Shown here piece after piece: positions 11,764 through 63,451 of a stretch of 64,000 bases of DNA. A program made the translations under genes and the position numbers. Within the stretch, counting starts at the first letter, position 1. The number at the start of each line of letters is the position of its first letter. The stretch is from Escherichia coli (GTDB taxonomy: Bacteria; Pseudomonadota; Gammaproteobacteria; Enterobacterales; Enterobacteriaceae). The DNA lies in NCBI RefSeq assembly GCF_003019035.1, contig NZ_CP027447.1. One strand, written 5' to 3'. The notes under the pieces are model-generated. The model was not told the DNA's origin. It ran no database searches and worked only from the letters and a program-made list of their open reading frames with translations.

Positions 11764-11949
11764 CATTCGTCCTGCATGAGAAGAAAAGAGGATTGTGGCA
11801 TTAAAGCCCTGATGTCGCCAGCCTTTCCAGGTTCAGAGAGAAATTTGATCTAACTATTATTTTTGTGAATTATTACCCCGAAAATAAATGTGCATGATGT
11901 ATGATTCGCGACTCTTGTTTCAAACCTTCTGAGTTCAGAGGCTACATTC

Positions 11950-13155
11950 ATGTCATGGCAGCAATTCAAACACGCCTGGTTGATTAAATTCTGGGCACCC
12001 ATCCCTGCGGTCATCGCGGCGGGTATTCTCTCCACTTACTATTTTGGCATTACTGGCACCTTTTGGGCTGTCACGGGTGAATTTACCCGTTGGGGCGGTC
12101 AGCTCCTGCAGCTGTTTGGCGTCCATGCTGAAGAGTGGGGTTATTTTAAAATTATCCATCTGGAAGGATCGCCATTAACCCGCATCGACGGGATGATGAT
12201 CCTCGGTATGTTTGGCGGCTGCTTTGCCGCAGCGCTGTGGGCCAACAATGTCAAACTACGCATGCCGCGCAGCCGTATCCGCATTATGCAGGCCATCATT
12301 GGCGGCATTATCGCCGGTTTTGGCGCGCGTCTGGCAATGGGCTGTAACCTGGCGGCGTTCTTTACCGGCATTCCTCAGTTCTCGCTGCATGCCTGGTTCT
12401 TTGCCATCGCCACTGCCATTGGTTCATGGTTTGGCGCGCGCTTTACCCTGCTGCCCATCTTCCGTATTCCCGTGAAAATGCAGAAAGTTTCTGCCGCCTC
12501 GCCGCTGACGCAAAAACCGGATCAGGCGCGGCGTCGTTTTCGTCTCGGGATGCTGGTCTTTTTCGGCATGCTGGGCTGGGCGCTGCTGACGGCGATGAAC
12601 CAGCCCAAACTGGGGCTGGCAATGCTGTTTGGCGTCGGCTTTGGTTTACTGATTGAACGTGCGCAAATCTGCTTTACTTCGGCGTTCCGCGATATGTGGA
12701 TCACCGGACGTACCCATATGGCGAAAGCAATCATTATCGGTATGGCGGTAAGTGCCATCGGGATCTTCAGTTACGTACAGTTAGGCGTTGAACCCAAAAT
12801 CATGTGGGCAGGACCAAACGCGGTAATTGGTGGTTTACTGTTTGGTTTTGGCATCGTGCTGGCAGGCGGCTGCGAAACCGGCTGGATGTACCGCGCGGTA
12901 GAAGGCCAGGTGCACTACTGGTGGGTCGGTCTGGGCAACGTGATCGGCTCAACGATTCTGGCGTATTACTGGGATGATTTCGCTCCGGCGCTGGCCACCG
13001 ACTGGGACAAAATCAACCTGCTAAAAACCTTTGGTCCGATGGGTGGCCTGCTGGTGACATATTTGCTGTTGTTTGCAGCTCTAATGTTGATTATCGGCTG
13101 GGAAAAACGCTTCTTCCGCCGTGCGGCACCGCAGACTGCTAAGGAGATCGCATGA
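11950..13155 (+). CDS. yedE: YedE/YeeE-family inner membrane transporter (selenium/sulfur-compound related)
   Basis: 401 aa polytopic membrane protein; followed by overlapping yedF. Confidence 0.93.
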   Translation: MSWQQFKHAWLIKFWAPIPAVIAAGILSTYYFGITGTFWAVTGEFTRWGGQLLQLFGVHAEEWGYFKIIHLEGSPLTRIDGMMILGMFGGCFAAALWANNVKLRMPRSRIRIMQAIIGGIIAGFGARLAMGCNLAAFFTGIPQFSLHAWFFAIATAIGSWFGARFTLLPIFRIPVKMQKVSAASPLTQKPDQARRRFRLGMLVFFGMLGWALLTAMNQPKLGLAMLFGVGFGLLIERAQICFTSAFRDMWITGRTHMAKAIIIGMAVSAIGIFSYVQLGVEPKIMWAGPNAVIGGLLFGFGIVLAGGCETGWMYRAVEGQVHYWWVGLGNVIGSTILAYYWDDFAPALATDWDKINLLKTFGPMGGLLVTYLLLFAALMLIIGWEKRFFRRAAPQTAKEIA

Positions 13156-13385
13156 AAAATATCGTTCCTGATTACCGTCTTGATATGGTGGGTGAACCCT
13201 GCCCTTATCCGGCAGTCGCCACCCTTGAGGCGATGCCGCAGTTAAAAAAAGGTGAGATCCTGGAAGTGGTGAGCGACTGTCCGCAGTCGATCAATAATAT
13301 TCCACTGGATGCGCGTAATCACGGCTATACGGTGCTGGATATTCAGCAAGACGGGCCGACCATTCGTTATTTAATTCAGAAGTAA
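13152..13385 (+). CDS. yedF: TusA-like sulfurtransferase family protein
   Basis: 77 aa with CPYP motif; 4-nt overlap with yedE. Confidence 0.93.
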   Translation: MKNIVPDYRLDMVGEPCPYPAVATLEAMPQLKKGEILEVVSDCPQSINNIPLDARNHGYTVLDIQQDGPTIRYLIQK

Positions 13386-13493
13386 TCCCTCATTCCCGCT
13401 GTGGCCCACAGCGGGAACATCGTTACCTCTGTATCACATAGATTTTACCCGCCCCCTCTCCTATTCTTTTCAGTATGATCTCAGGAGGTTTCT

Positions 13494-14162
13494 ATGTGTG
13501 GACGCTTTGCCCAATCCCAAACGCGTGAAGATTACCTTGCGCTTCTCGCGGAAGATATTGAACGCGATATTCCCTATGATCCCGAACCCATTGGCAGATA
13601 CAACGTCGCGCCGGGAACCAAAGTCCTTCTGCTCAGTGAACGTGATGAACACCTTCATTTGGATCCGGTTTTCTGGGGATATGCTCCCGGATGGTGGGAT
13701 AAACCGCCGCTGATTAATGCCCGCGTAGAAACTGCCGCAACCAGTCGCATGTTTAAGCCGCTCTGGCAACATGGTCGGGCAATCTGTTTTGCCGATGGCT
13801 GGTTTGAGTGGAAAAAAGAAGGCGACAAAAAACAGCCTTATTTTATCTATCGCGCTGACGGACAACCTGTTTTTATGGCCGCGATAGGTAGCACACCGTT
13901 TGAGCGTGGTGACGAAGCCGAAGGATTTTTGATCGTCACTGCGGCGGCAGATCAAGGTCTGGTAGATATTCATAACCGCCGCCCGCTGGTACTGTCGCCA
14001 GAAGCTGCACGGGAATGGATGCGGCAAGATATTGGCGGTAAAGAAGCCTCTGAAATCGCTACCAGTGGCTGTGTGCCAGCAAACCAGTTCACCTGGCACC
14101 CGGTATCGCGCGCGGTGGGTAATGTCAAAAACCAGGGCGCGGAGTTAATTCAACCTGTTTGA
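13494..14162 (+). CDS. yedK: SOS-response-associated peptidase (abasic-site processing)
   Basis: 222 aa starting MCGRFAQ, SRAP family with catalytic Cys2. Confidence 0.93.
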   Translation: MCGRFAQSQTREDYLALLAEDIERDIPYDPEPIGRYNVAPGTKVLLLSERDEHLHLDPVFWGYAPGWWDKPPLINARVETAATSRMFKPLWQHGRAICFADGWFEWKKEGDKKQPYFIYRADGQPVFMAAIGSTPFERGDEAEGFLIVTAAADQGLVDIHNRRPLVLSPEAAREWMRQDIGGKEASEIATSGCVPANQFTWHPVSRAVGNVKNQGAELIQPV

Positions 14163-14272
14163 TAAGCCTGGAGATTATTGATCAACAATACTGCGTCATA
14201 AGAAATCTCTATTAGACAAAGATTTCAGTACCTGTTGGCATATTGCAAAAATAATACCAATACGGAATCGTC

Positions 14273-14752
14273 ATGTTCACGATTAAAACAGATGATCTCA
14301 CCCATCCAGCAGTGCAAGCATTAGTGGCTTACCATATTTCCGGCATGCTGCAGCAGTCTCCCCCCGAAAGCAGTCATGCTTTAGATGTGCAAAAATTACG
14401 TAACCCGACAGTGACATTCTGGTCAGTATGGGAAGGCGAACAACTCGCAGGAATTGGTGCGCTGAAGTTGCTGGATGATAAACATGGCGAGCTGAAATCA
14501 ATGCGTACCGCGCCTAATTATTTACGTCGTGGTGTCGCCAGTCTGATTTTACGCCACATTTTGCAGGTCGCCCATGACAGATGCCTTCATCGCCTGAGCT
14601 TAGAAACGGGTACACAGGCTGGATTTACGGCCTGCCATCAACTTTATTTGAAGCATGGTTTCGTTGATTGCGAACCGTTTGCTGATTATCAACTTGATCC
14701 ACACAGTCGATTTTTGTCATTGACGCTATGCGAAAATAATGAATTGCCATGA
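14273..14752 (+). CDS. yedL: GNAT-family N-acetyltransferase
   Basis: 159 aa acetyltransferase fold. Confidence 0.9.
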   Translation: MFTIKTDDLTHPAVQALVAYHISGMLQQSPPESSHALDVQKLRNPTVTFWSVWEGEQLAGIGALKLLDDKHGELKSMRTAPNYLRRGVASLILRHILQVAHDRCLHRLSLETGTQAGFTACHQLYLKHGFVDCEPFADYQLDPHSRFLSLTLCENNELP

Positions 14753-15169
14753 GCCAGACGCAGCACATTCTTGCATTCGACGAGCTGCGCCTTTATTTAT
14801 TATCAGCCGCAAATGTCTTGTCCTTAGACGCTCTTTCCACATGCGCCACAAGAAACCTCTATTCCAGTGACACAATTATGCCTGATTATTTCCCTAGCCC
14901 GGAATATGAATAAAAACATCAAATAAGATGAAATTATCAAAATATTAATGTTGCGTCTGTGGTCGTAACAACAACCGACCTGGTGATGCGTGTTAAAGGA
15001 GACACTCTGATGTTCAGGGGGGTTATCACGTATACAGATCGTGGATGGCAGAAAACTTTCAGAATCAGGTTTCCATTTTAAACCAGAAATTGAGTGAGTT
15101 TGCCCCATCAATGCCCCACGCTGTGAGTTTGGATGTCATTAAACAAGCACAATCAACACGTAACACAAC

Positions 15170-15484
15170 CTACACCTGCATGCTCATCACTTCCTGATAC
15201 GCCGCTACCAGCTTATTACGCACCTGAATCCCCATTTGCATAGAAACTGAGGCTTTTTGCATATCGGTCATCACATCGTTTAGCGCCACGCCGGGCTCAC
15301 CGAGGGTGAATTTTTCTGCCTGGGTACGGGCGGCTGTTTGTGTATCGCTTATGCGATCGAGCGCGGCGTGCAGCTGCCAGGCAAAACTAATGGTCGGTTG
15401 CGGCAGTGATTCCTGCGCACGCGCACTCATCGCCGTGGTCTGTAACTGGCTGATAACCCCTTCAATCCCCTGTATCGCTGACAT
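15170..15484 (-). CDS. fliE: flagellar hook-basal body protein FliE
   Basis: ORF trimmed to [14 protein letters not shown], 104 aa. Confidence 0.93.
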
Positions 15485-27062: not shown

Positions 27063-27105
27063 CACATTCTGACTGGTGGTTTCCCACCAGTCAGGCTGAA
27101 TTAGA

Positions 27106-27697: not shown

Positions 27698-27784
27698 AAA
27701 TCCCGACCCTGAGGGGGTCGGGATGAAACTTGCTTAAGCAAGAAGCACTTAAAAAATTCGTTACACCAGGAAATCTGATGTGTT
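27698..27784 (-). ncRNA. dsrA: DsrA small regulatory RNA
   Basis: minus-strand 87 nt AACACATCAGATTTCCTGGTGTAACG...CCCGACCCCCTCAGGGTCGGGATTT matches DsrA as I recall it, ending in its terminator hairpin. Confidence 0.92.
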
Positions 27785-30488: not shown

Positions 30489-30658
30489 CCTGACGACTCC
30501 CAACCTGCTTTTTTATGATTCTGGCATAACCCGGCGATAACGTACCGCAAAACAGCGATAATTTTATAATGGTGGCATGATAAGACGCGACTATCATTCA
30601 TTGCAGGCATTGGCACACCAGGCCGGATGTGATCCGGCCTGGTGTTAATGATACCCTT

Positions 30659-37678: not shown

Positions 37679-37716
37679 AGCCTGAGTTCGTCCCTCATCG
37701 AACTCAGGCTTTTTTA
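37679..37716 (+). terminator. intrinsic terminator of the porin gene
   Basis: 12-bp stem agcctgagttcg / cgaactcaggct followed by a T-run. Confidence 0.65.
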
Positions 37717-62770: not shown

Positions 62771-63451
62771 TTAAAATTTAAGATTTTTCAGTGCATTCAG
62801 TGCGGCATCCACATCCTCAGCATCACGCAGGGATAAAGCGCCATATCCCCCGGCCATGAATGCTTTGGCCTGGGTTCGCGAGAGTCCAACATCGCGCAGG
62901 ACTCGCTCAATAATTTTCTGATCAGGGATCTCCCCACGCGCCAGCGCATTTTTCACATCGCTGATGCGTGCCTCATCATTGGAAGGAAACGTCACCAGAC
63001 TGACCTCCCACAGGTCGATCTCTTTCAGCAGGAATACCCCTTTTTCACGGTCGTACTCCCAGTCTTTCAGGATGTAGCCAATAGAAAGGCCGGTTAAAGA
63101 ACCGGCCTTCATATGAGCATGTGCACGTTTTGCCAGGGGATCATCATCAACGAGTAATCGCCCCCTGACATAAAGCCCGACATCATCTTCTTTCATTTCG
63201 GTGTACACACCGATGGGCTCATCCATGCGGTGCTGCCAGAGCAACGCAGGCAGCGCCTTTTTTTCGCTCCATTTCTGGAGTGTTGTGGTAAAGGCACCGG
63301 GGACCACCACATCATCATGGCTGTCCTTAACACCAAAAACAGAGCCGTAACCTTCAAACTCCCCGGAATCACTGACTGATTTCAGGTTCAGCGGTATATC
63401 AAGACGCTGTTTTGTCTGCATCTCCACTCTCCTTTTTCTTACCGTTGCCAT
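62771..63451 (-). CDS. HK97-family prohead maturation protease
   Basis: 226-aa ORF between portal and capsid genes; true start may be ATG at 63421. Confidence 0.8.
   Translation of the reverse strand: MATVRKRRVEMQTKQRLDIPLNLKSVSDSGEFEGYGSVFGVKDSHDDVVVPGAFTTTLQKWSEKKALPALLWQHRMDEPIGVYTEMKEDDVGLYVRGRLLVDDDPLAKRAHAHMKAGSLTGLSIGYILKDWEYDREKGVFLLKEIDLWEVSLVTFPSNDEARISDVKNALARGEIPDQKIIERVLRDVGLSRTQAKAFMAGGYGALSLRDAEDVDAALNALKNLKF

Follow-up and report, generated by a model that had tools for sequence, protein, structure and literature searches.

The steady-state 3′ termini of Rho-dependent Escherichia coli transcripts adjoin stable stem-loops, which have no U-rich tail and no upstream A-tract and are followed by sequence enriched in C over G (Dar and Sorek, 2018; PMC6061677). 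Dar and Sorek argued that such stem-loops block PNPase and RNase II (PMC6061677). Canonical intrinsic terminators place a GC-rich hairpin, with a U-tract and an A-tract, a few nucleotides past the stop codon at the end of an operon, and REP elements, which are 3′ mRNA stabilisers, are extragenic palindromes just past a stop codon. Shared or bidirectional hairpins between convergent genes have reportedly been described for E. coli by full-length RNA profiling.

The palindrome considered here lies directly behind yedF in a 64-kb stretch of E. coli DNA (the window, to which positions refer unless MG1655 is named), and it resembles each of these systems in part. With the class of Dar and Sorek it shares a stable stem-loop directly before a precise steady-state 3′ end, the lack of a U-rich tail and of an upstream A-tract, and an excess of C over G downstream; unlike that class, the site is missing from the Rho-region table of Adams et al. 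(2021), and Rho dependence is here something that we infer. Like a canonical intrinsic terminator, it is a GC-rich hairpin a few nucleotides past the stop codon at an operon end, with one 3′ end 6 nt after the stem, but the E. coli version has neither a U-tract nor an A-tract. As with REP elements, it is an extragenic palindrome just past a stop codon, and REP-like sequences replace it in about 11 loci; in contrast to REP/BIME elements, it is found at one locus per genome, is shorter, and lacks a GCCGGATG-type consensus. The homologue in Citrobacter braakii, located in the 45-nt gap between yedF and fliE, would fold on both strands, in the manner of hairpins shared by convergent genes, whereas in E. 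coli yedK-yedL separates the hairpin from fliE, the neighbouring genes are co-directional, and no hairpin was found after the fliE stop. We show below that the palindrome corresponds to a hairpin with covarying pairs, that hairpins are conserved at this position, and that yedF RNA 3′ ends map in vivo to the hairpin foot.

Results

A perfect palindrome between yedF and yedK

The gene order in the window is amyA-yedD-yedE-yedF-yedK-yedL-fliE-fliF, and yedEF, without yedK, has been identified as an anaerobically active operon in an iModulon study (PMC7888660). The features of the locus are as follows.

11950–13155, + strand: yedE coding sequence, heading the yedEF unit, which ends in the hairpin (open reading frame; RefSeq annotation YedE/FdhT).
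13152–13385, + strand: yedF coding sequence, TusA-like, with its TAA stop at 13383–13385 (open reading frame; Pfam TusA match, 9e-21; RefSeq annotation).
13393–13417, + strand: palindrome and RNA hairpin in the yedF 3′ UTR, with stem 13393/4–13403 paired to 13407–13416/7 and loop 13404–13406 (sequence, fold, covariation).
13416–13425, + strand: peak of mapped yedF RNA 3′ termini (MG1655 2009743–2009752; Supplementary Data 2, 3 and 4 of PMC10687069).
13418–13493, + strand: spacer from the hairpin to the yedK start, C-rich, G-poor and predicted to be unstructured; candidate Rho-utilisation (rut) tract.

On the + strand the palindrome reads TTCCCGCTGTGG-C-CCACAGCGGGAA, a perfect 12+1+12 arrangement in which the 12-nt arms are 100% complementary around a single C. 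An initial annotation, made from the sequence, had placed a palindrome with 12-bp arms at 13393–13417, starting 8 nt after the yedF stop and without a T-run, and each of these statements is borne out: 7 nt follow the TAA, the palindrome starts at the eighth, no T-run follows the arms on either strand, and a scan for consensus terminators gives no call here. The + strand tail, ACATCGTTAC, contains 3 T among the first 8 nt after the stem, and there is no A-tract upstream of the E. coli hairpin. On the downstream side, 76 nt separate the palindrome from the yedK ATG at 13494.

Chance does not explain the palindrome. The 64-kb window has 3 loci with perfect inverted repeats whose arms reach 12 nt or more and whose loops do not exceed 8 nt, compared with 0.03 per first-order Markov shuffle of the same window. 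Five further inverted repeats of hairpin type, also perfect and with 10–14-nt arms (0.7 expected per shuffle), are located at 27069–27094, 27700–27724, 30615–30645, 37679–37710 and 63086–63109; the repeat at 30615 has a REP-like GCCGGATG core, and all five probably represent REPs or terminators.

When transcribed, the 25-mer reaches a folding energy of −18.4 kcal/mol (z = −5.4 relative to dinucleotide shuffles) as a stable, GC-rich stem of 10–11 bp closed by a 3-nt loop, the stem being shorter than the 12-bp arms in DNA because a 1-nt loop cannot form. A search of 11800–14400 with the Rfam covariance models, at E values up to 10, returned zero matches. A LexA box at CTGTATCACATAGA, 3′ of the hairpin, was considered and rejected, with the CTGT half alone being recognisable by eye.

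The spacer that follows the hairpin is of unusual composition, with 20 C and 6 G between 13418 and 13477, which places this segment at the 98th percentile of 60-nt windows on the + strand. Its fold is no better than that of shuffles (z = −0.7), and a consensus promoter scan found no sigma-70-like promoter between the hairpin and yedK. A perfect inverted repeat of 8 nt, CACATAGA / TCTATGTG, lies at 13435–13442 and 13491–13498, with its second arm spanning the yedK start codon; it may block initiation of yedK or have arisen by chance.

Variation within E. coli

A query of 221 nt surrounding the site matched 5377 of 5426 complete E. coli genomes, once in each. A 40-nt query centred on the palindrome matched a median of two places per genome, the number to be had when one palindrome matches itself on both strands, and a dispersed repeat was rejected, the locus being single in each E. 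coli genome. Variation within the species was examined in 8 haplotypes drawn from across the identity range, not in all genomes; they cover the identity classes of 100, 97.5, 97.4, 94.9 and 92.3% into which the matches to the 40-nt query fall. In these haplotypes the palindrome varies only at 13404 (G, A or T; A in K-12) and 13407 (C or A), that is, in the loop and the innermost pair, with the outer 10 pairs invariant, and the flanks of the palindrome have several variable positions.

Some E. coli genomes, H20 (NZ_CP116929.1) and H16/L089 (NZ_CP027701.1), have a truncated or pseudogenised yedK or a region broken by a DUF4158 (transposase-type) gene, and the hairpin still adjoins yedF in both.

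Compensatory change and conservation of position across species

For comparison between species we used the best 80 of 252 species-representative YedF loci, giving 81 with the window. Directly 3′ of the yedF stop, 16 loci from Escherichia, Salmonella and Citrobacter, including the window, share the stem base (C/T)TCCCG...CGGGA(G/A); one Enterobacter locus (L039) also has a hairpin with the shared base and was left out of the alignment. The 13 distinct 27-nt versions from the three genera align without gaps, and standard pairs occupy 96.5% of cells, compared with 38–60% when the 3′ partner column is slid by 1–3 positions. Both sides have changed in 5 of the 11 pairs, with T-A replaced by C-G at the base of the stem and with C-G/T-A and T-A/A-T/G-C alternatives inside it, and three loop columns differ among the aligned versions. 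RNAalifold, which was not given the helix, predicts the same 11-pair helix. The covariation counts derive from related sequences, so that shared ancestry supplies part of the signal. The hairpin is a real RNA structure under selection.

In more distant genera most loci have a hairpin at the same place, but the sequences belong to unrelated families. Perfect Watson-Crick stems of 7 bp or more, lying no further than 50 nt from the yedF stop, occur in 57% of the 81 loci, compared with 0–1% in the controls (dinucleotide shuffles, yedE/yedF coding windows and windows displaced by +200 nt), and hairpins of −15 kcal/mol or better are present at 68 of 81 loci, compared with 15 of 81 shuffles. These two measures replaced a cut-off of −10 kcal/mol, which does not discriminate, since 59 shuffles and 76 coding windows, out of 81 each, also passed it. 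The initial annotation had named conservation across the Enterobacteriaceae as a check on the palindrome; outside the lineage of the window the structure is kept, but the exact sequence is not.

The type of structure also differs between loci. At 10 of the 81 loci the 8 nt behind the hairpin include 5 or more T, the form of a canonical terminator. The homologous hairpins of Salmonella arizonae/diarizonae are followed by a run of 5–6 T (ACCTTTTTA, ACATTTTTTA); one of these two Salmonella homologues is included in the ten, and in the other the six-T run starts 3 nt past the stem and was absorbed by the extended helix used in the automated count. At about 11 loci, mostly from Citrobacter, a REP-like element (GCCGGATG...) occupies the position of the hairpin. 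Conservation thus applies to the presence of a structure at this position, with turnover of both its sequence and its type.

The REP-like palindrome, GCCGGATG...CTTATCCGGC, is located just past the yedF stop in ten Citrobacter and one Pseudescherichia vulneris (L005, L006, L010, L011, L016, L018, L019, L023, L030, L036 and L051), and relatives of these carry the CTCCCGC hairpin there. One 3′ structure has been swapped for another in the REP-bearing loci.

The hairpin as an old element of yedF

The distribution of yedK bears on which gene the hairpin serves. Within 2.5 kb downstream of yedF, yedK is found in E. coli and in two Franconibacter loci, and it is missing from this interval in the other 78 of the 81 loci. 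The four other Escherichia species have the homologous hairpin with yedK absent from the 2.5 kb past yedF, and in C. braakii, where the stops of the convergent genes yedF and fliE are 45 nt apart, the hairpin takes up the space between them. In blastn alignments, the match of the window to the four other Escherichia species runs as far as the hairpin's last paired base, 13416; the match to C. braakii breaks off at the yedF stop and picks up again at the fliE stop (15170). Because similarity breaks at these points and species without yedK keep the hairpin, we assign the hairpin to yedF and yedK-yedL to a later segment: the hairpin is an old 3′ element of yedF that predates yedK at this position, and yedK-yedL (13418–15169) is a lineage-specific segment placed directly behind it.

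The gap between yedF and fliE is variable in content (13416–15170 compared with L021, L009, L013, L022 and L007). In E. coli it contains yedK and yedL, in L009 a yedL homologue and no yedK, and in Escherichia sp. E1V33 genes for DUF1398 and DUF2846 proteins. In the two Franconibacter loci (L044 and L046, ~2735–2815) yedK (~69% identity) follows yedF with an unrelated GC-rich hairpin between them, so that the yedF-hairpin-yedK layout occurs in a second, distant lineage.

The initial annotation had offered two roles for the palindrome, one of them a protein-binding site ahead of yedK. A palindromic operator, bound by a dimeric DNA-binding protein that regulates yedK, would account for the perfect dyad symmetry 76 nt upstream of the yedK start, but this is scarcely credible on the present evidence. 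Escherichia, Salmonella and Citrobacter species with no yedK in the 2.5 kb downstream have the hairpin after yedF all the same, C. braakii with its short yedF/fliE gap among them; the changes between versions are compensatory and not sequence-preserving, with the loop and inner stem free to change at what would be the centre of the operator; and other genera have unrelated hairpins or REP elements in its place. In the window the half-site shows no enrichment (8 matches with 2 mismatches or fewer, compared with 5.6 expected), and the promoter scan called no sigma-70-like promoter between the palindrome and yedK. We rule out an operator for yedK because the hairpin is an older element of yedF and because its changes are compensatory.

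It is very unlikely, if less so, that the palindrome matters as DNA in another way, either as a REP- or MITE-like remnant or as a recombination target or boundary for the insertion of yedK-yedL. Such a reading would fit the fact that similarity to the four other Escherichia species ceases exactly where the hairpin has its 3′ end (13416), as well as the different genes that follow in different lineages and the REP-like elements at the same spot in several Citrobacter species. The palindrome is, however, single-copy in each genome and does not fit the REP consensus, and the far side of the segment, close to fliE, carries neither another copy of it nor a direct repeat. Insertions are tolerated at terminators that lie between convergent genes, so a boundary at such a place is in any case expected.

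Mapped 3′ ends at the foot of the hairpin

Mapping of RNA 3′ ends was the second check named in the initial annotation, and published MG1655 data place a yedF terminus 2 and 6 nt past the palindrome. A TRS analysis of MG1655 RNA lists a ‘Primary’ yedF 3′ terminus at 2009750 from RNAtag-seq in LB, and a second, re-analysed data set has a peak at 2009743–2009752 with its dominant position at 2009746 (signal 0.96, adjusted p 1e-73 to 1e-87; PMC10687069). With the offset of 1,996,327 obtained from yedF (2009479–2009712 in MG1655, 13152–13385 in the window), 2009750 corresponds to 13423 and 2009746 to 13419, which lie 6 and 2 nt, respectively, past the palindrome. The fold given in the TRS table, ....(((((((((((...)))))))))))...., has an energy of −18.9 kcal/mol, and the longest U run is 3 (PMC10687069).

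In the work of Adams et al. (2021), the curated tables from Term-seq contain no 3′ end in MG1655 2,009,200–2,010,399 and the bicyclomycin read-through table has no Rho region after yedF; the TERMITe supplements have no yedF entry. The bicyclomycin table does list a Rho region inside yedE, at MG1655 2008838 (window ~12511), ~560 nt into the gene, which suggests premature Rho-dependent termination of yedEF in aerobic laboratory conditions. Low expression under aerobic conditions is the most likely reason why the site is absent from the tables of Adams et al., yet the absence lends the proposed model no support.

The mapped ends, together with the compensatory changes and the hairpins at the same position elsewhere, support the other role offered by the initial annotation, that of an RNA-stabilising hairpin. 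They also bear on the main rival to our preferred reading, a weak non-canonical intrinsic terminator in which the hairpin alone would release the RNA 6–7 nt downstream, with substantial read-through into yedK. What makes it the main rival is a mapped end at the usual distance for release and the T-run retained by a Salmonella homologue: a stable, GC-rich stem is present, the dominant 3′ end at 13423 is 6 nt past the palindrome, and the T-runs of S. arizonae/diarizonae imply that the ancestral element may have been a canonical terminator. Such a terminator nevertheless seems rather unlikely as the whole explanation in E. coli, where T makes up 3 of the 8 nt after the stem and the longest U run in the TRS table is likewise 3, where there is no upstream A-tract and the consensus scan does not call the site, and where the mapped end at +2 is too near the stem for release and is better explained by trimming.

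A further possibility is that the hairpin ends an RNA of ~120 nt from the yedF 3′ region, or that it is a leader hairpin controlling read-through into yedK. The TRS table records a published TSS at MG1655 2009631, inside yedF and 119 nt upstream of the mapped 3′ end (PMC10687069). In the window this candidate TSS is at 13304, with a −10-like AATAAT at 13293–13298, and the lack of a called promoter between the hairpin and yedK would also be in keeping with a transcript that starts within yedF. The AATAAT hexamer, however, falls on synonymous codon positions and varies freely in other genera, and yedF is no outlier in the TRS 3′-UTR-versus-CDS analysis in any of the 3 libraries (PMC10687069); moreover, the hairpin is older than the arrival of yedK at this position. 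We consider this reading improbable, and the narrower proposal that the E. coli hairpin is additionally the 3′ end of a separate ~120-nt RNA from 13304, or a leader terminator of yedK, a long shot. The candidate TSS at 13304 may in its own right be a yedK promoter or the start of a short RNA.

Discussion

A proposed route to the mature 3′ end

We propose, with a probability of about 0.78, that the hairpin acts as RNA, not as a site in DNA, and defines the 3′ end of the yedEF mRNA, most likely by way of Rho-dependent termination followed by trimming. A structural role at the 3′ end is well supported by the evidence above, and the parts given to Rho and to exonucleases are ones that we infer from the features of the site. 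As the last element of the yedE-yedF mRNA, the hairpin would fold just past the yedF stop and set the mature 3′ end. RNA polymerase would pass the hairpin, Rho would load on the C-rich spacer, and termination would follow before yedK or early within it; 3′-to-5′ exonucleases (PNPase, RNase II) would then trim the tail back to the hairpin foot, where they would be blocked and the message thereby stabilised. Inefficient termination driven directly by the hairpin at +6/+7 may add to this. The net effect would be a yedEF mRNA that is both ended and protected, and a yedK-yedL segment insulated from yedEF transcription.

We favour this sequence of events because the hairpin has no U-tract and is followed by a tract that is unstructured, C-rich and G-poor; the combination of a stable stem, a missing U-tract and a downstream excess of C over G matches the traits described by Dar and Sorek. 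The hairpin probably protects and stabilises the yedEF messenger. A Rho-type model and a weak intrinsic terminator are not mutually exclusive.

Meaning for yedEF and its relatives

The hairpin is of a textbook kind, and the yedF 3′ end was already present in a published table. The 3′ boundary of the yedEF transcription unit is now fixed at about 13419–13423, which has little reach beyond annotation. The comparison also shows yedK-yedL to be a lineage-specific segment directly behind an older terminator hairpin; if the reading with a ~120-nt RNA or a leader were true, it would couple the recently acquired yedK, which encodes an SRAP abasic-site crosslinking protein, to that older terminator. 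For the Enterobacteriaceae, the locus provides a small, clean example of an operon 3′-end structure that is kept across the family as its sequence and type turn over, the types seen at the yedF 3′ end being a hairpin that lacks a U-tract, a terminator of canonical form and a REP element.
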